8,582 nucleotides of DNA, taken from the IMG/VR virus record IMGVR_UViG_2671180609_000027; one strand, written 5' to 3'. The DNA comes from a virus. Taxonomy: Duplodnaviria > Heunggongvirae > Uroviricota > Caudoviricetes. Shown in pieces: positions 2,951 to 8,582 of the stretch. Made by a program: the position numbers and the translations under genes. Position 1 is the stretch's first letter; every line of letters starts with the position of its first letter. The notes beneath the pieces were generated by a model that saw nothing but the letters and a program-made list of their open reading frames with translations, had not been told where the DNA came from and ran no database searches.

Positions 2951-3362
2951 TCAAACAAAACCAGCCGCCTTCCGGCGCTCGTATTCCTGTTTCAGTAATT
3001 CAATTGGCGTTGGCCCTTGCGGGCACTTCGGCGATGCGAGTTGTCTCCGGATCGGGGGAATACTCATCCCGTTACCAACTTGCTTTGCCCATTTCGTCAG
3101 TTGCCGTTCTGCAAGTCGTTTTAACTCACCTTCCGTCATCTGCCGCTCAATCCCTCTGTCACGCATCTCGAGGCAAATGTGGTACAGCACCGGCTGTGGC
3201 CACGGGTATTTATCACTCCCGTCGTACCGCCAGGATTCATTCCTCCAGCGACGGTACTCCTCCATCACGGCATCCACCGTCAGGCCAAATGGATTTGCCC
3301 CGCTCTCCGAAATCAACGCCACAAACTCAGCCAGGTCCGGAGGCCACGTTTCACCCGCCCGG
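2951..3362 (-). CDS. C-terminal coding fragment abutting the assembly gap (136 codons before the stop at 2951-2953); either the C-terminus of the YdaU-like replication protein or a separate gene whose start is lost in the gap
   Basis: Open frame from the gap edge to the stop; sequence is protein-like (PDLAEFVALISESGANPFGLTVDAVMEEYRRWRNESWRYDG...). Frame relation across the gap cannot be determined. Confidence 0.45.
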
Positions 3363-3460
3363 NNNNNNNNNNNNNNNNNNNNNNNNNNNNNNNNNNNNNN
3401 NNNNNNNNNNNNNNNNNNNNNNNNNNNNNNNNNNNNNNNNNNNNNNNNNNNNNNNNNNNN
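3363..3460. other. Assembly gap: run of 98 N
   Basis: Literal n characters in the sequence; true length and content unknown. Confidence 0.99.
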
Positions 3461-4142
3461 CAGGCTCAGGCAGAGCCATACCCCACAATGCAGCCCGCTG
3501 TCGAAAATCCAGCGACGGCCGCCAGACACCAGTCATCGGAAATTTCCCGATCGGTTCGCTCAGGCCATCCGGGTATTCAGGTTCTGCTGTCTGCAACGGC
3601 GCGCCATTCGACTCACTGGCTGGAGCACTCTCGCGCATGCGCGCGTTATGTGTGGGGTTTAATTCTTTATCTGTATCTGTATCTGTCGTGACTTGTCGTG
3701 ACATATGCGTGACGCGTCGTGACTCATCGTGACAATCAGTGTTCTGCTCCCGCAGTCTTTCCCGCTCCCGCTGCGCTCTCTTGCGCTCTGCCGGGGATTT
3801 TGCGGTTTGCGAAACATTACCGTTATCCTCCTTCATCACCTGGCGTTTTTCCCATCCGGAAATAAGATCGCCATCCAGAACTCGCCCCTGCATTGCATGC
3901 AAAATTGAATCAATCACGTCTTCCGTCACATCAAGCGCACTTGCTAAATCTTCCGTCGTGACATCAATGTGACCACGTAGTGACTCGCCGTGACATTTCG
4001 TGACATTTCGTGACGCACTCACCAGAAGGTGGATATACACCGCCATCACTGTTGCGATTGGCTGTCCTGAGACCCTGGCAATGGTTCGCCATTTGGGATC
4101 ATTTGGCATGTCATGCCACAATCTGAGCCAGGCATTAGCCAT
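3461..4142 (-). CDS. Phage replication initiation/replisome-organizer-like protein (DUF1376/YdaU-like), N-terminal portion truncated by the assembly gap
   Basis: N-terminus MANAWLRLWHDMPNDPKWRTIARVSGQPIATVMAVYIHLL matches the W-x-[RK]-[LW]-x-[HD]-x(3-5)-D-P-K ... I/V-Y-I-x-L-L pattern I recall for phage replisome-organizer/DUF1376 N-domains. Position right after ydaS-ydaT matches ydaU in Rac. ATG at 4142 with SD GAGGTG (alternative GTG at 4148). Iteron clusters lie inside it. Confidence 0.6.
3671..3734. repeat. Iteron cluster 1: CTGTAT x3 (3671-3686) followed by five CGTGAC copies starting at 3687, 3697, 3708, 3718 and 3728 (10-11 bp spacing)
   Basis: Counted directly in the sequence; helical-repeat phasing; lies inside the replication-protein gene, as lambda ori lies inside gene O. 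Confidence 0.6.
3951..4016. repeat. Iteron cluster 2: six phased copies of CGTGAC or one-mismatch variants (starts 3957, 3968, 3979, 3989, 3999, 4009; includes CGTGACATTT x2)
   Basis: Counted directly; 10-11 bp periodicity; same core as cluster 1, about 225 bp away within the same gene. Confidence 0.6.
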
Positions 4143-4210: not shown

Positions 4211-4636
4211 TCAATGCACGACAACAGCATTACCAGGCTGACCCCCACTGTTAGTCAGGGTGCCCCAGGCGATCGCCGCTGCGACAAAATCATCCACATC
4301 TTTCACCAGCCGATCCCTCCGTTCGACGATCTCACGGTAATATTCAGAGCTGTGACTGCGCATACGGGCCACCAGCAGAGGCGGCATTGCCTTTTCGATC
4401 GCCGGTAACAGAGCCTGCATTTTTTCAACAGCATCAGGGGTGTCTTTATCCAGCCAACGGAAAATTTTCTGGGTATTACGAGCCAGGGCTTCCGGATGGC
4501 TGTCGTCGTACAGTTCCGGGAACGTCATCCCCAGTTCGAAATAAGTCCGGGCTATTTCAGCTGCAGGAACTTTCTCACCATCAGGATATGCCCAGGCATT
4601 CATCGCCATGCGGATGTGCTCATGTTTGATTTTCAT
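4211..4636 (-). CDS. ydaT: YdaT-like protein (cII-like regulator of Rac-type prophages; reported toxic when overexpressed), 141 aa
   Basis: Begins MKIKHEHI, which I recall as the YdaT N-terminus; located 13 nt downstream of ydaS as in Rac; ends ...VVVH; ATG at 4636. Confidence 0.7.
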   Translation of the reverse strand: MKIKHEHIRMAMNAWAYPDGEKVPAAEIARTYFELGMTFPELYDDSHPEALARNTQKIFRWLDKDTPDAVEKMQALLPAIEKAMPPLLVARMRSHSSEYYREIVERRDRLVKDVDDFVAAAIAWGTLTNSGGQPGNAVVVH

Positions 4637-4943
4637 GAATCATTTGCCTCTTGATGCTTCGGGTATGATCGTTTTCGTCATTTGGTTGCTTCATCGACAT
4701 ATTCTGCGAATAACATGACGAGCGTCGTAAGTATGTCCAATCAACATCAGGACGAAGTTCTTCACACAGGACACCACCTTTTGTTGCTCGTTCAATCGCA
4801 GGACATCTCTCAGCAGGCAACTGACGTACACCTTTGATCCATTGATTTACGCTTGGAGGAGATACACCTAAAAGCCTAGCCATTGCTGATTGCCCACCGA
4901 CAACAGCACAAGCTCGTTTGAATGAATAGTTATCTTTTTTCAT
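4620..4943 (-). CDS. ydaS: YdaS-like Cro-type HTH regulator, about 107 aa from the ATG at 4943
   Basis: Segment KRACAVVGGQSAMARLLGVSPPSVNQWIKGVRQLPAERCPAIERAT closely matches what I recall of E. coli Rac YdaS. ATG at 4943 with SD GGAG about 8 nt upstream; the track ORF extends 7 codons further, to 4964. Divergent from the repressor gene. Confidence 0.85.
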   Translation of the reverse strand: MKKDNYSFKRACAVVGGQSAMARLLGVSPPSVNQWIKGVRQLPAERCPAIERATKGGVLCEELRPDVDWTYLRRSSCYSQNMSMKQPNDENDHTRSIKRQMIHENQT

Positions 4944-4964
4944 CGAATGAACTCCAAAAAACAC

Positions 4965-5067
4965 ACAATAATATTAGGCTTAGCCTAATGCAATTGTCAA
5001 TAGGCTATGCCTAACGCTTCGAGAGTAGGTATTGCCTAATGCGATGCGCATAGGAGACTATTAAGCA
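4965..5067. promoter_or_regulatory. Divergent immunity-region control region: leftward promoter for ydaS (-35 TTGACA at 5000-4995, 18-bp spacer, -10 TAATAT at 4976-4971) overlapped by operator palindromes TAGGC-TTA-GCCTA (4975-4987) and TAGGC-TAT-GCCTA (5001-5013); a degenerate site CCTA-N12-TAGG containing palindrome ATGCGCAT lies at 5035-5054 next to the racR RBS AGGAGA (5052-5057)
   Basis: Hexamers and palindromes read directly from the sequence; operators overlap the -10 and abut the -35 of the ydaS promoter as expected for repressor control. The rightward racR promoter could not be placed confidently. Confidence 0.6.
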
Positions 5068-5544
5068 ATGCTTAGTGGTAAAGACTTAGGCCGAGCGATA
5101 GAGCAGGCCATTAACAAAAAAATTGCATCAGGAGCCGTCAAATCAAAGGCGGAAATCGCACGTCATTTCAAAGTCCAACCACCATCAATCCATGACTGGA
5201 TTAAGAAAGGTTCGATAAGTAAAGACAAACTTCCAGAACTATGGCGTTTCTTTTCTGATGTGGTTGGTCCAGAGCATTGGGGGCTTAACGAATACCCCAT
5301 ACCAACCCCATCCACTTCAGATACAAAAAGTGAACTTTTAGACATAAACAGCCTTTATCAAGCCGCCTCTGATGAAAAAAGAGCAATTGTGGCTTTCCTC
5401 TTATCTGGAAATGCTACGGAGCCTAGTTGGGTTGATCATGACGTTCGTGCCTACATTGCCGCAATGGAAATGAAGGTAGCTAACTATCTGAAAAATCAAG
5501 AATCAAAACGGAAAAGCCAGAACATCACCAAGACAGGAACTTAA
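5068..5544 (+). CDS. racR: RacR-like prophage repressor (CI functional analogue), 158 aa
   Basis: Length and position (divergent from ydaS) match Rac racR. HTH segment SKAEIARHFKVQPPSIHDWIKKGSIS resembles the YdaS HTH. RBS AGGAGA 10 nt upstream of ATG 5068. Confidence 0.75.
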   Translation: MLSGKDLGRAIEQAINKKIASGAVKSKAEIARHFKVQPPSIHDWIKKGSISKDKLPELWRFFSDVVGPEHWGLNEYPIPTPSTSDTKSELLDINSLYQAASDEKRAIVAFLLSGNATEPSWVDHDVRAYIAAMEMKVANYLKNQESKRKSQNITKTGT

Positions 5545-5558
5545 ACTTATATGGTCCG

Positions 5559-5580
5559 ACGGGAAATTCCTAGTTCCCGT
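5559..5580 (+). terminator. Candidate stem-loop terminator after racR (ACGGGAA-attcctag-TTCCCGT)
   Basis: 7-bp perfect stem, 8-nt loop, 15 nt after the racR stop; only a weak T tract follows (TAGTTAA), so intrinsic-terminator status is uncertain. Confidence 0.25.
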
Positions 5581-5639
5581 TAGTTAACTCCTACTACCTC
5601 TCCCACAAACCATCACCTATTAGGTCGCACCCAAATCAT

Positions 5640-5681
5640 TAGGCGTAGCCTATTGACAAGCAATTAGGCATTTCCTATAGT
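5640..5681 (+). promoter_or_regulatory. Second operator-promoter region: palindrome TAGGC-GTA-GCCTA (5640-5652) abutting -35 TTGACA (5653-5658), 17-bp spacer containing a degenerate TAGGC half-site (5665-5669), -10 TATAGT (5676-5681); rightward, toward ydaF-xis-int
   Basis: Near-consensus sigma70 hexamers with optimal spacing, read directly; same 13-bp operator consensus as at 4975-5013. Confidence 0.55.
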
Positions 5682-5859
5682 TTTCCCATACCAACCCATC
5701 CCGTCCCACACAATACAGGGCAATACCTAGAGTTACCCGGCAGTGGTCAGGGATTAAGTAGCCAGCCCGAGGCGTAAGAACATGACGGCAGGGTTCAACT
5801 TTAACTATGCAGCAGGTTTTTGTTCCGCTACCCCGGCGTTAAGGGGATATGAGGTCAGC

Positions 5860-6012
5860 ATGGATACTCTTGATCTTGGCAACAACGAATCTCTGGTGTG
5901 CGGCGTGTTTCCCAACCAGGACGGCACGTTCACCGCGATGACGTATACCAAAAGCAAAACGTTTAAAACCGAATCTGGCGCGCGTCGCTGGTTAGCAAGA
6001 AACTCTGACTAA
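5860..6012 (+). CDS. ydaF: YdaF-like small protein (DUF1391 family), 50 aa
   Basis: Sequence MDTLDLGNNESLVCGVFPNQDGTFTAMTYTKSKTFKTESGARRWLARNSD resembles the Rac/Qin small DUF1391 proteins as I recall them. SD GAGG 5 nt upstream of ATG 5860; an alternative start at 5782 would add 26 residues. Confidence 0.55.
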   Translation: MDTLDLGNNESLVCGVFPNQDGTFTAMTYTKSKTFKTESGARRWLARNSD

Positions 6013-6063
6013 TGAAATCTGGTAATTAAGGAATCCTCCACGGGGGGAGAGTGGTGCACACGC

Positions 6064-6087
6064 GCCGGACACAAGCAAGCATCCGGC
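6064..6087. terminator. Stem-loop between convergent genes (GCCGGA-12 nt-TCCGGC), possible bidirectional terminator
   Basis: 6-bp GC-rich inverted repeat between the ydaF stop (6012) and the stop of the minus-strand gene (6127); no clear U tract on either side. Confidence 0.2.
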
Positions 6088-6126
6088 ATGCTCTTTAACA
6101 ATCTGGATATCCATAACAGTAAAAAT

Positions 6127-6618
6127 CTACAGATTGCCGTTCAGTTTTCTGGCCAACTCTTCAATAGATGGAGGTGATACGTAATCCGGATTTTTATTCA
6201 TAAGAAACTGATTTTCACAGTACAGGCACCTGCTTTTATGAAAAAATTCATATTCTCTAACCGGGAATGGCTGAAGTATCGATACTATCTTTTGTCCAAA
6301 ACATTTTGGACAAAGATGCATGATTATGCTGCCGCCGTTCACGGTTACCTCCTTCGAGTACACAAAAGTTCCCGACTCAAGTTGGCTAAGGATATAACCT
6401 TCCGTCTGAGCCTCAAAGTTTTCAAATTCTGCAATTTTAGCTTTGAGAGAAGCATTTATTTCTTGATAAGTGCCCACCAGCTCAACGAGAGACACGCATT
6501 CGCGCTGAATAGATGCAAGCTTTGAGTTCAGTTCACCAATAGCCGCATTTACTTCAGCTTGAGTTTTTGCCTCGTTCATTAGTTTTGCAATCTGGGCGGT
6601 TTCACGAATAGCCGTCAT
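6127..6618 (-). CDS. Hypothetical protein (about 163 aa) with an N-terminal predicted coiled coil and a C-terminal CxxC-x21-CxxC zinc-ribbon-like motif; AT-rich accessory gene (moron) on the strand opposite to its neighbours
   Basis: ORF 6127-6795; upstream of ATG 6618 the translation is low-complexity, so ATG 6618 (or GTG 6642 with AAGAG upstream) is the likely start. Heptad-like N-terminus (IAKLMNEAKTQAEVNAAIGELNSKLASIQRE...), then HLCPKCFGQK...SRCLYCENQF. Visibly lower GC than flanks (by eye, not computed). No transmembrane segment. Confidence 0.6.
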   Translation of the reverse strand: MTAIRETAQIAKLMNEAKTQAEVNAAIGELNSKLASIQRECVSLVELVGTYQEINASLKAKIAEFENFEAQTEGYILSQLESGTFVYSKEVTVNGGSIIMHLCPKCFGQKIVSILQPFPVREYEFFHKSRCLYCENQFLMNKNPDYVSPPSIEELARKLNGNL

Positions 6619-6656
6619 TGCTGCCGTTAATTCAGCGATCACATTCAATACTCTTA

Positions 6657-6702
6657 TTGTTGTTGGGGATATCCAGATTAACAAGATCCTTGTTGTTGGG
6701 GA
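6657..6702. repeat. 13-bp direct repeat TTGTTGTTGGGGA x2 (6657-6669 and 6690-6702), 33 bp apart
   Basis: Exact match read from the sequence; lies between the start of the AT-rich gene and the truncated exonuclease frame. Confidence 0.6.
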
Positions 6703-6726
6703 ATAACGGGGACCACCTCGCCTGAC

Positions 6727-7164
6727 GTGGTAAAAAGCAGGCACACAACACGAAAGCACACGGCGAGGGACACCATTAAATGGTGGCTTAAGCAATCACG
6801 CGAAGCGCAATCTGCCATTATGACCGATGAAATCCCGTTAGATGATGCACTGTTACAATTGCGGGAATTTATCGACGAAAACTCCGGTGAATTTTTTGTT
6901 CAGGTCTGGGGAAATGGAGCCAACTTCGACAACACGATTTTGCGCCGTTCATACGAACGGCAGGGGATCCCCTGCCCGTGGCGTTACTACAACGATCGCG
7001 ATGTACGCACAATCGTTGAGCTGGGGAAAGCCATAGACTTCGATGCCAGAACGGCTATTCCATTCGAAGGTGAGCGCCATAATGCACTTGATGACGCCCG
7101 TTACCAGGCAAAATACGTTTCAGTTATCTGGCAAAAACTGATCCCGAGTCAGGCTGATTTTTAA
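6727..7164 (+). pseudogene. 5'-truncated DEDDh-type (DnaQ-like) 3'-5' exonuclease remnant; conserved part starts near 6820
   Basis: Contains Exo II-like VWGNGANFDNTIL and Exo III-like ERHNALDDARYQAKY (H-x4-D) motifs but no Exo I (D-x-E) motif. The frame opens only at 6682 after a TAA at 6679-6681 and has no ATG before 6820 (track start is GTG 6727); the expected ~60 N-terminal residues are absent. Confidence 0.6.
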
Positions 7165-7225
7165 TGTTCAACCGTCGCCAGTTGTCGTTGATATTCTGCA
7201 ACTGGCGCGTTCCGGAGTGATAGCC

Positions 7226-7495
7226 ATGAGCGAACAGTACCTGATAACGCTCGACGAGTGGAAACCAAAACGGTTCAGTCTCCCAATAACAAACACTACC
7301 CTGGTGAAATACGGAAAACTAGGATACATCGTTCCAAGACCACAAAAAATTCGTGGGCGTTGGCTGATAGATCGCCGAGCAGTATTTGTTGGGCCTGGTG
7401 AAACGGGAATTGCGCCGGAAATTCATACTGGCGATGATGATGCACTGAAGGAGATTTTAACTCATGTCACCGAGGCCACGAAAAAACAGCACTGA
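7226..7495 (+). CDS. xis: Excisionase (lambda Xis-like), 89 aa
   Basis: N-terminus YLITLDEWKPKR resembles lambda Xis YLTLQEWNARQR. Immediately upstream of int and overlapping it by 32 nt, as xis and int overlap in lambda. SD GGAG (7213-7216) 9 nt before ATG 7226; the track ORF begins at GTG 7217. Confidence 0.7.
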   Translation: MSEQYLITLDEWKPKRFSLPITNTTLVKYGKLGYIVPRPQKIRGRWLIDRRAVFVGPGETGIAPEIHTGDDDALKEILTHVTEATKKQH

Positions 7496-8582
7496 CGTAG
7501 CCGGTCTTTACGAAAAGTTTGATCGCAGAACTGGCAGAGTTTACTACCAGTATAAAAATCCTGTGACTGGAAAATTTCACGGACTCGGAACAGACAAAGG
7601 TAAGGCAGAAAAAATCGCTTCCACAGCCAATCAGCGAATAGCTGCAGCAGAAGCTGAATATTTCATGCGCAAAATTGATGAAAGTCCGTCAGCAACAAAA
7701 CGTCGGGGTATCAGATTAAAGGCATGGGTTGATCGATATCTGAAAATACAGGACACGCGACTGAAAAATGGAGATATTGCAGCTACAACTCACAAAGAAA
7801 AAACTCGAATGGCTGCATACCTGGTTTCCCGTCTGGGAAACCACCCATTGAAAGAACTGGAAGTAAGAGACTTTGCATTAATACTGGATGAGTGGCTGGA
7901 TAAAGACATGGTCAGTACAGCGAGAGTAAATCGTGGATTATGGGTTGATATTTATAAAGAAGCACAGCATGCAGGGGAAGTTCCTCCTGGATGGAATCCT
8001 CCGGAGGCTACCCGTAAACCGATCCCTAAAGTAACCAGAGCCAGGCTCACCATGGAAGACTGGCAAAAAATTTACAATGCAACGCCTGAAAAACACTTTA
8101 TCCGTAACGCAATGCTTCTTGCGATTGTTACTGGTCAGCGCCGTGATGACATTTGCCACATGCGTTTTTCAGATGTGTGGAACGAACACTTGCATATCAC
8201 CCAGGGAAAAACCGGAATGCGTCTGGCGTTACCGCTTACACTACGCTGTGATGCCATTGGGATAACGTTAAAAGAAGTTATTGATGGGTGCCGAGACAGA
8301 ATATTAAGTCCATATCTAATCCATAGTCGGCACCAGAAACAACCGAAGCCGATGAGTAAAGACAACCTGAGCGACTACTTTGCCAAAGCACGGGATCTGG
8401 CTGGGGTAATTCCACCAGCAGGAAAAACTCCGCCAACATTTCATGAACAACGCTCTCTATCAGAACGGCTGTACCGTGCACAGGGTATCGATACAAAAAC
8501 ATTACTAGGACATAAAGTCCAGGCAACCACCGATCGCTATAACGATACTCGAGGTCAGGAATGGGTTAAGTTGGTTATTTGA
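7464..8582 (+). CDS. int: Lambda-family tyrosine integrase (site-specific recombinase), 372 aa
   Basis: C-terminus FHEQRSLSERLY...LLGHKVQATTDRYNDTRGQEWVKLVI parallels the lambda Int C-terminus as I recall it (FHELRSLSARLY...LLGHKSDTMASQYRDDRGREWDKIEIK), including the H-x-x-R box, LLGH and the catalytic Tyr. Complete ORF ending with TGA at the window edge. Confidence 0.9.
   Translation: MSPRPRKNSTDVAGLYEKFDRRTGRVYYQYKNPVTGKFHGLGTDKGKAEKIASTANQRIAAAEAEYFMRKIDESPSATKRRGIRLKAWVDRYLKIQDTRLKNGDIAATTHKEKTRMAAYLVSRLGNHPLKELEVRDFALILDEWLDKDMVSTARVNRGLWVDIYKEAQHAGEVPPGWNPPEATRKPIPKVTRARLTMEDWQKIYNATPEKHFIRNAMLLAIVTGQRRDDICHMRFSDVWNEHLHITQGKTGMRLALPLTLRCDAIGITLKEVIDGCRDRILSPYLIHSRHQKQPKPMSKDNLSDYFAKARDLAGVIPPAGKTPPTFHEQRSLSERLYRAQGIDTKTLLGHKVQATTDRYNDTRGQEWVKLVI

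Follow-up and report, generated by a model that had tools for sequence, protein, structure and literature searches.

A predicted RacR-repressed early-left promoter and operator pair downstream of racR in a lambdoid prophage of Escherichia coli O157

Positions 5640–5681 of the DNA analysed here are best explained as a RacR-occluded early-left promoter/operator, the equivalent of PL/OL, in a lambdoid prophage with RacR immunity; the probability of this reading is put at about 85 %. RacR binding at the two operators, the activity of the promoter and the extent of its transcript are predictions. The whole stretch analysed (8582 nt), referred to below as the window, gave a 100 % identity match to a lambdoid prophage of E. 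coli O157, with an integration site beside potC. The RacR operator code is already known, but only for the ydaS side of the repressor gene; the left pair is an element of an expected kind. No promoter or operators downstream of racR were found described in the literature, in which an older description is possible, and the region downstream of racR is not discussed in the OxyS/kilR paper. The overall reading of an initial annotation of this DNA was partly supported; its core, an OL/OR-like bracketing of the repressor gene, holds.

Layout of the module and its surroundings

The repressor gene, the genes on either side of it and the sites described in the text are collected in Table 1. The arm of the window prophage that runs from ydaF to xis and int is heavily deleted, with sieB, kilR, racC and recET missing relative to K-12 Rac, so the left element could be functional and yet matter little in this particular prophage. 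A scan of the whole window against Rfam matched 0 families.

Table 1. Positions of genes, operators, promoter elements and other features in the window.
Feature	Position	Strand	Remark
YdaT-family gene	4211–4636	−	Annotation
YdaS/Cro-like helix-turn-helix gene	4620–4943	−	Annotation
ydaS promoter	−35, 5000–4995; −10, 4976–4971	−	Consensus scan
Right operators, perfect	4975–4987 and 5001–5013		Motif scan; K-12 counterpart region footprinted (PMC9638921)
Right operator, 1 mismatch	5026–5038		Motif scan
Weak fourth operator, TAAGCAATGCTTA	5062–5074		2 mismatches; racR ATG inside its spacer
racR, repressor gene bracketed by both operator clusters	5068–5544	+	158 aa, 92 % identical to K-12 RacR
Hairpin past the racR stop codon	5558–5581	+	8-bp stem, −10.9 kcal/mol
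Conserved island, CATCACCTATTAGG	5612–5625		Everted half-site-like pair, ACCTA / TTAGGT
OLa, perfect predicted RacR operator, TAGGCGTAGCCTA	5640–5652		Adjoins −35; approximately −48 to −36 from predicted +1
−35 hexamer TTGACA, predicted early-left promoter (PL analogue)	5653–5658	+	Immediately 3′ of OLa at every module-bearing locus
OLb, second predicted RacR operator, TAGGCATTTCCTA	5665–5677		1 mismatch, T for G at position 9
−10 hexamer TATAGT	5676–5681	+	17 nt past −35
Predicted start A5688, within CATAC	5687–5691	+	Predicted from mosaic joint
Leader of predicted early-left transcript	5688–5859	+	ydaG-like ATG at 5782
DUF1391 gene (YdaF/YdfA family), first annotated gene of the operon	5860–6012	+	Pfam PF07151, E = 1.9e-30
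Opposite-strand gene, 171 codons, no annotated function	6127–6642	−	Between DUF1391 gene and xis/int
Truncated 3′-5′ exonuclease gene	6763–7164	+	Annotation and Pfam
Excisionase gene	7226–7495	+	Annotation and Pfam
Integrase gene	7464–8582	+	Annotation and Pfam

The perfect TAGGC-N3-GCCTA palindrome and the TTGACA-17-TATAGT promoter that it abuts (5653–5681), both noted in the initial annotation, can be read directly in the sequence. The bases 5665–5669, which had been listed as a degenerate half-site, are in fact the left half of a full operator; this site, OLb, lies in the promoter spacer and extends two bases into the −10 hexamer (approximately −23 to −11 from the predicted +1). The promoter scored 11 of 12 in a consensus scan and was the sole plus-strand match in 4500–6300. 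The same kind of scan returned no promoter in 5680–8582, and a plus-strand terminator search of that interval gave none ahead of 8108, a position inside int.

Exact copies of TAGGC-N3-GCCTA occur three times in the window (at 4975, 5001 and 5640) and in none of 200 dinucleotide shuffles. When one mismatch was allowed, five sites were obtained against 0.13 expected, every one of which belongs to one or other of the clusters flanking racR. With two mismatches allowed, the count rose to six against 2.35 expected, a number reached by 5 of the 200 shuffles; this excess is marginal, only weakly above chance and not significant by itself, and it was not used as evidence. Operators are spaced 25 bp start to start in the left cluster, and 26 and 25 bp in the right cluster. 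OLa and OLb have the predicted specificity of the right-hand cluster: their half-sites are identical to those of OR1 and OR2, and the operators adjoin or overlap promoter hexamers. The clusters had been placed about 650 bp apart, with racR between them as cI is in lambda; the bracketing holds, and the distance from OR1 to OLa is 665 bp, start to start. A third canonical left operator was not found at ±25–26 bp from OLa or OLb, the best candidate near them being 5621–5633 with 3 mismatches.

On the other side of the gene, the ydaS promoter has the order operator, TTGACA, N7, operator, TAATAT, in base-for-base alignment with the plus-strand module. It lies on the minus strand and fires away, whereas the left promoter stands 3′ of racR, with both on the plus strand. 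The weak operator at 5062–5074 is the K-12 'operator 3' of PMC9638921 and has 1 mismatch in diverged lineages. K-12 RacR gives footprints on WTAGGC-n3-GCCTAW repeats in the racR-ydaS region (PMC9638921), and the K-12 ydaS promoter, which is repressed by RacR, reaches approximately 25,000 Miller units in reporter assays (PMC9638921, PMC11879457).

Upstream of OLa, an ATTAGGT is present at 5619–5625, where a degenerate half-site had been marked; rather than a simple half-site, however, it is part of a conserved, non-canonical island (5612–5625). This island is identical to K-12 in 14 of 14 positions, the neighbouring segments being 47–58 % identical, and its centre lies 26 bp from that of OLa. 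It is kept in 38 unique Escherichia-type variants among the matches listed, some of which read GCCTATTAGGT, with left flanks in at least three unrelated versions. Conservation is confined to Escherichia-type loci, the island being absent in diverged lineages. It could represent auxiliary RacR half-sites or a site for another factor; ATTAGGC has been proposed as a RacR monomer site (PMC9638921).

Between racR and OLa, the hairpin just past the stop codon was considered as an intrinsic terminator and rejected: its folding z score is −0.67 (−1.65 in K-12) and it has no U tract. Its stem is conserved, and it is retained as a weak candidate for part of the racR termination region. The DNA from 5545 to 5639 has a C:G ratio of 31:12, and the whole tract 5545–5750 is rich in C and poor in G. 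Such a composition is compatible with a Rho-dependent terminator like trac, which was reported in K-12 racR and blocks read-through into kil (PMC4150792).

Conservation, repressor and transcription start

Relatives of racR were gathered by protein similarity, together with two phage records, and their DNA was scanned only afterwards, which avoids circularity. The operator/−35/N6/operator/−10 module was present downstream of racR homologues in 10 of the 13 loci found by protein similarity. Module-bearing loci include those of E. coli, E. ruysiae, Mixta, Proteus, a Pseudomonadota MAG, Klebsiella phage KpF5 and two Achromobacter, and their repressors include proteins only 56–67 % identical to RacR. 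In all ten, the operators are 25 bp apart, start to start, TTGACA follows directly after the first, and a −10 hexamer overlaps the second at its end. Phage genomes carry the module too, as seen in the records of Escherichia phage vB_EcoS-683R6 and of the KpF5 phage just listed. No left operator pair was detected in the 3 kb fetched for each of the loci L010, L012 and L014, even at 2 mismatches; in these the pair may have been lost, or may lie farther out. The earlier proposal of a second operator–promoter set downstream of racR and codirectional with it is thus strongly supported by comparison across loci.

The same module is found in K-12 Rac, the element with which the initial annotation had suggested that the region be compared. 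K-12 Rac aligns through the region at approximately 87 % identity; within 5638–5681, 41 of 44 positions are identical, against 47–68 % in the adjoining segments. Of the three positions that differ, one is in the OLa spacer, one is between −35 and OLb, and one is the position of OLb that is already mismatched. Over seven independent lineages, mean pairwise identity was 0.95 for the half-sites, 0.95 for the −35 hexamer and 0.78 for the −10 hexamer, as compared with 0.38 for the N3 spacers, 0.55 for the stretch from −35 to OLb and 0.27 for the 60-nt flanks. This pattern is that of selection confined to the putatively protein-contacted bases and the promoter hexamers. In the lineages of L008, L009 and L011, OLb is fully palindromic; in most enterobacterial copies it is imperfect. 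The −10 hexamer is TATAGT in Escherichia-type loci and TAATAT, TAACAT or CTATCG in other lineages.

A pattern scan of viral contigs identified the module in at least 120 of them. One module per strand, facing outward, was seen in 89 of the 120 contigs listed; these outward pairs are mostly 627–630 bp apart, and about ten are at 1.2–2.2 kb. Among the 75 unique modules in the matches listed, the −10 hexamer is TATAGT in 35, TAATAT in 20 and TAACAT in 9. Outside the search pattern, these 75 non-redundant copies conserve an A/T before each site, the right half of OLb as nCCTA and the final T of the −10 hexamer; their flanks have no information content. The promoter spacing class is consistent in Escherichia-type loci, with N6 on the left side and N7 on the ydaS side.

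Conservation of the half-sites is matched in the protein. Residues 28–73 of RacR, in the N-terminal domain, are almost invariant in seven lineages, with complete divergence after about residue 77, and the recognition region PPSIHDWIKKGS is invariant wherever the half-sites are; the published recognition helix comprises residues 38–47 (PMC11014345). RacR of the window has no Pfam match and no significant sequence relative in the PDB, and it lacks a C-terminal Peptidase_S24 domain (Pfam). The Achromobacter homologues have the same N-terminal domain joined to Peptidase_S24 (E = 2e-14 and 7e-15) and retain both operator clusters. One DNA-binding domain and its operator code are therefore common to repressors with entirely different C-terminal domains.

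The position of the transcription start was approached through loci with other immunities. Thousands of E. coli genomes match the window solely from about 5687 onward. The region was aligned by placing three prophages with other repressors beside RacR-type loci: MNCRE44 (a LexA-family CI), O111 (an unrelated 139-aa protein) and K-12 Qin (DicA). The three have an identical gene order at this region, and each carries its own operator/−35/operator/−10 cassette in the same register; that of O111 has two perfect TACCCATGGGTA palindromes on either side of TTTACT. CATAC is unchanged in all five aligned loci, which have four different repressors among them. Downstream of it, the leader is common to MNCRE44 and O111 and partly to Qin; upstream of it, no similarity was detected between prophages of different immunity. 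The joint lies 6–7 nt past the −10 hexamer, where a transcript should begin, and for this reason we infer a transcription start at or near A5688.

The predicted leader is homologous to leaders of operons of the ydfA-dicB type. Its first 60 nt or so are rich in C and poor in G (C:G = 25:12 in 5682–5750; GC skew down to −0.49). Folding gave no stable structure in the leader (z = +1.0 and 0.0), which is predicted to be unstructured. A search for antitermination of the N/nutL type gave no Rfam match, no stable conserved leader hairpin and no annotated N-like gene. N/nutL antitermination is typical of lambda and P22 and is not universal among lambdoid prophages.

Proposed regulation and competing explanations

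According to the preferred reading, RacR dimers would occupy OLa and OLb, 25 bp apart, and with OLb overlapping the −10 hexamer the bound repressor would occlude RNA polymerase from a near-consensus σ70 promoter. OLb is imperfect in Escherichia-type loci, so repression there may depend on cooperativity with OLa. The 25-bp spacing resembles that of lambda, whose cooperatively bound operator pairs have their centres 24 bp apart. When RacR falls, transcription would start near A5688 and proceed rightward, codirectional with racR, across the shared leader and into the DUF1391 gene; in the shortened prophage, the truncated exonuclease gene, xis and int are probably transcribed next. Loss of the repressor would thereby be coupled to excision. 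With neither another consensus promoter nor a plus-strand terminator before int, the left promoter is the obvious candidate for the driver of xis and int, at a distance of only some 1.5 kb. A single transcript would then extend to int, and it may need help in reaching it because of the opposite-strand gene at 6127–6642 and a leader that looks Rho-sensitive.

In K-12 depleted of RacR, the increase is approximately 40 fold for ydaF, ydaG, ydaE and racC and exceeds 70 fold for ydaC, kilR and ralA (PMC6765115); xisR/intR rise approximately 100 fold, after which Rac is excised (PMC11014345). No responsible site is named in these papers, and the 2023 study puts xisR/intR far from the repressor (PMC6765115, PMC11014345). 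Derepression of the K-12 left arm fits a RacR-repressed promoter at this position. All mapped RacR sites lie across racR; the left module would provide a physical basis for both derepression and excision, and a RacR-occluded promoter here would make the derepression of ydaG, ydaF, kilR, racC, xisR and intR direct. An element of this type is predicted by the lambdoid paradigm and is useful rather than surprising, as it would close a gap in the RacR regulon. The immunity cassette would further appear as one exchangeable unit, comprising the right operators, the repressor, and the left operators with their promoter, and with one joint exactly at the start of the left transcript.

A real promoter might instead be silenced mainly by Rho termination in the C-rich leader, by the Cro-like YdaS or by nucleoid proteins, with the RacR sites playing a minor part. 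In vivo, the ydaS promoter shows hardly any activity even when RacR is missing (PMC9638921, PMC11879457), Rho and NusG are required to silence kilR of Rac (PMC4150792, PMC12482147), and in CP-933P both PaaR2 and YdaS regulate PL933P (PMC8630535). The leader, rich in C, poor in G and unstructured, would suit such silencing, but its C-richness is not conserved beyond Escherichia-type loci. The half-sites, on the other hand, are as conserved as the −35 hexamer across Enterobacterales and Burkholderiales while their surroundings have diverged, which requires selection on repressor binding, and lowering RacR alone is enough to raise left-arm RNAs of K-12 40–100 fold; silencing chiefly by factors other than RacR is accordingly regarded as unlikely. 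The degraded state of the prophage (truncated exonuclease gene, shortened left arm) and the great similarity of the left and ydaS-side modules would also be expected if the left module were a decaying duplicate of the ydaS-side operator–promoter, or a mere roadblock to racR read-through, devoid of promoter function. This is considered highly improbable: in 10 lineages the −35 and −10 hexamers have been conserved along with the operators, two phage records carry the module too, the mosaic joint falls exactly at the predicted start, and the consistent difference between N6 and N7 on the two sides speaks against a recent duplication.

It has also been proposed, by analogy with lambda, that the two clusters interact by looping. 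In such a model, a RacR octamer would bridge the OLa/OLb and OR1/OR2 pairs in a loop of approximately 665 bp and so tighten repression of both divergent arms. The model extends the early-left promoter reading and is not an exclusive alternative to it. Each of the two clusters has an adjacent operator pair 25–26 bp apart, and the two-sided layout persists at 1.2–2.6 kb and with a C-terminal S24 domain of the CI/LexA type. In size-exclusion chromatography K-12 RacR ran at 151 kDa, 148 kDa being expected for an octamer (PMC11014345), and PaaR2 of CP-933P, a prophage with an analogous PL/OL, is likewise reported to be octameric (PMC8630535). The authors of PMC11014345, however, attribute the octamer to the four intergenic repeats between racR and ydaS; the word 'loop' is absent from that paper, as is 'looping' from PMC9638921 and PMC11879457. 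RacR and CI have unrelated C-terminal domains, that of RacR matching nothing in Pfam or the PDB, and no third canonical left operator is available to pair with OR3. Two promoters need two operator sets with or without a loop, so that the two-sided arrangement is not itself evidence for looping. The model is for these reasons held only tentatively, and we lean somewhat against it. If it were true, long-range looping of the lambda kind would have evolved on another protein scaffold, and the loop would govern the tightness with which both ydaS-ydaT and the xis-int arm are silenced, and hence the threshold for excision. The left pair in any case allows a second reading of the octamer, in which it would serve operator pairs flanking racR in place of four intergenic sites. 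The Achromobacter S24 fusions, which occur on the same operator layout, make both scaffolds comparable on identical operators.

Comparison with known systems

The closest characterized counterparts are lambda OL/PL, Qin dicBp and PL933P of CP-933P. A further reference is the racR-ydaS region of K-12 itself, the operators of which (O1–O3/O4) share half-site consensus, layout and repressor with the left pair. They lie on the other side of racR, where they control ydaS-ydaT and racR itself, and binding to them was demonstrated by EMSA and DNase footprinting (PMC9638921), whereas the left pair is known from sequence.

In lambda, as in the window, two operator clusters bracket the repressor gene, and the left promoter follows that gene in the same direction. 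Both have an operator between −35 and −10 and another beside −35 and build both promoters to one design; the left operon of lambda ends in xis and int, as would the predicted one of the window. They differ in their operators, which are 13-bp TAGGC-N3-GCCTA sites in the window and 17-bp sites in lambda, with two left operators as opposed to three, and in the separation of the clusters (665 bp, compared with approximately 2.4 kb in lambda). RacR resembles CI in its N-terminal fold, by published prediction only, and its C-terminal domain is unrelated; as RacR lacks the S24 peptidase, RecA-driven self-cleavage is not expected. In contrast to lambda, no N/nut system was identified in the window.

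CP-933P of E. coli O157:H7 has a Rac-like immunity region, with a repressor facing ydaS-ydaT as in the window. Its second promoter beyond the repressor operon, PL933P, has PR-like operators and is repressed by PaaR2 and YdaS in reporter assays (PMC8630535). The repressor belongs to a different family, the repeats are of the GTTTAGTAA type, three left operators (OL1–3) are reported, and a toxin–antitoxin pair is inserted between the repressor and PL. CP-933P is thus an experimentally tested system, as compared with a window read from its sequence.

Qin of K-12 differs in its repressor and operators, without similarity upstream of CATAC, and its leader is mostly shorter and unrelated. Its gene order is dicA - dicBp - ydfA-ydfB-ydfC-dicF-dicB, of which dicF and dicB are missing from the window. 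Like the left promoter described here, dicBp is situated between the repressor gene (dicA) and a DUF1391 gene (ydfA/ydaF). It is an analogue of PL with operators, is repressed by DicA, starts the ydfA-dicB transcript and increases 22 fold on deletion of dicA (PMC10448788). The transcription unit that it serves is homologous to that of the window: CATAC, the ribosome-binding region and the start of the DUF1391 gene can all be aligned between the two.

Mosaic joint and the flanking island

Alignment of the prophages placed an exact recombination joint at the sequence CATAC, at which immunity-specific DNA meets a common early-left leader; the joint coincides with the predicted transcription start. 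Upstream of CATAC, each prophage was found to carry its own operator/-35/operator/-10 cassette in identical register, in prophages with four different repressors. Farther upstream, the island CATCACCTATTAGG contains two half-site-like elements in everted orientation, and its centre lies 26 bp from that of the first left operator. Among the Escherichia-type loci the island was invariant, although the flanks are unrelated, and was not found in the compared loci of other genera.

One operator code with different repressor C-termini

In two Achromobacter loci and some viral contigs (L054, L076, L078, L080, L095 and L125 among the matches listed), the RacR-type DNA-binding domain is joined to a C-terminal part of about 280 residues, and a Pfam scan of both Achromobacter proteins (n=2) identified a Peptidase_S24 (CI/LexA-type) domain within this part. 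The fused repressors use TAGGC-N3-GCCTA operators, arranged on two sides as in the RacR type. The C-terminal domains are unrelated and the operators and layout identical; these repressors therefore have one operator code in common.

Features of the window and of the compared loci
Feature	Locus	Position	Strand
YdaS-like/YdaT-like overlap	window	4620-4636	
Masked run	window	3363-3460	
C-rich tract	window	5545-5750	plus
Upstream island	window	5612-5625	
CATAC joint	window	5687-5691	
Shared early-left leader	window	5687-5691 and onward	
Mosaic-joint region	L137	2501-2832	
Mosaic-joint region	L138	2501-2832	
Mosaic-joint region	L139	3727-3905	
76-codon ORF	window	5782-6012	
DUF1391 part, 50 codons	window	5860-6012	
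171-aa protein, function unassigned	window	6127-6642	minus
Fused repressor gene	L011, Achromobacter	3001-4101	
Fused repressor gene	L013, Achromobacter	3001-4089	
384-aa protein	L016, Klebsiella phage KpF5	4649-5803	
Small interval ORF	L076, viral contig	8377-8697	
Small interval ORF	L113, viral contig	7062-7493	
Small interval ORF	L111, viral contig	7981-8928	

Early-left leader and downstream genes

The plus strand around the promoter is strongly C-rich and G-poor (C:G 31:12 ahead of the operators and 25:12 over the first 69 nt past the -10; GC skew as low as -0.49), and the leader within this tract was predicted by folding to be unstructured. The tract resembles a Rho loading region, and it fits the silencing of the Rac left arm by Rho and NusG that has been reported (PMC4150792, PMC12482147).

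The 76-codon ORF starts at the ATG corresponding to the K-12 ydaG start and continues in frame into the DUF1391 gene; of this ORF, RefSeq annotates the DUF1391 part alone. In K-12, ydaG and ydaF are separate genes. The 171-aa protein, with a predicted coiled-coil-like N-terminal half, gave one weak, sub-threshold Pfam match; its gene and the early-left transcript are convergent, and the gene stands where K-12 Rac has sieB. In this prophage the YdaS-like gene shares 17 nt with the YdaT-like gene, whereas about 22 nt separate ydaS and ydaT in K-12 Rac. The replication-gene region includes 98 consecutive masked N; ORF translations spanning them contain X and are unreliable.

Genes between the repressor and the left operators

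Some relatives carry additional genes in this interval: the KpF5 protein has a type I restriction HSDR_N nuclease-like domain, and two of the small ORFs (L076, L113) encode signal-peptide-like N-termini. The interval may serve as a site for cargo, either defence or lysogenic-conversion genes. Lambda carries rexAB at the place corresponding to that of the extra genes in these relatives.
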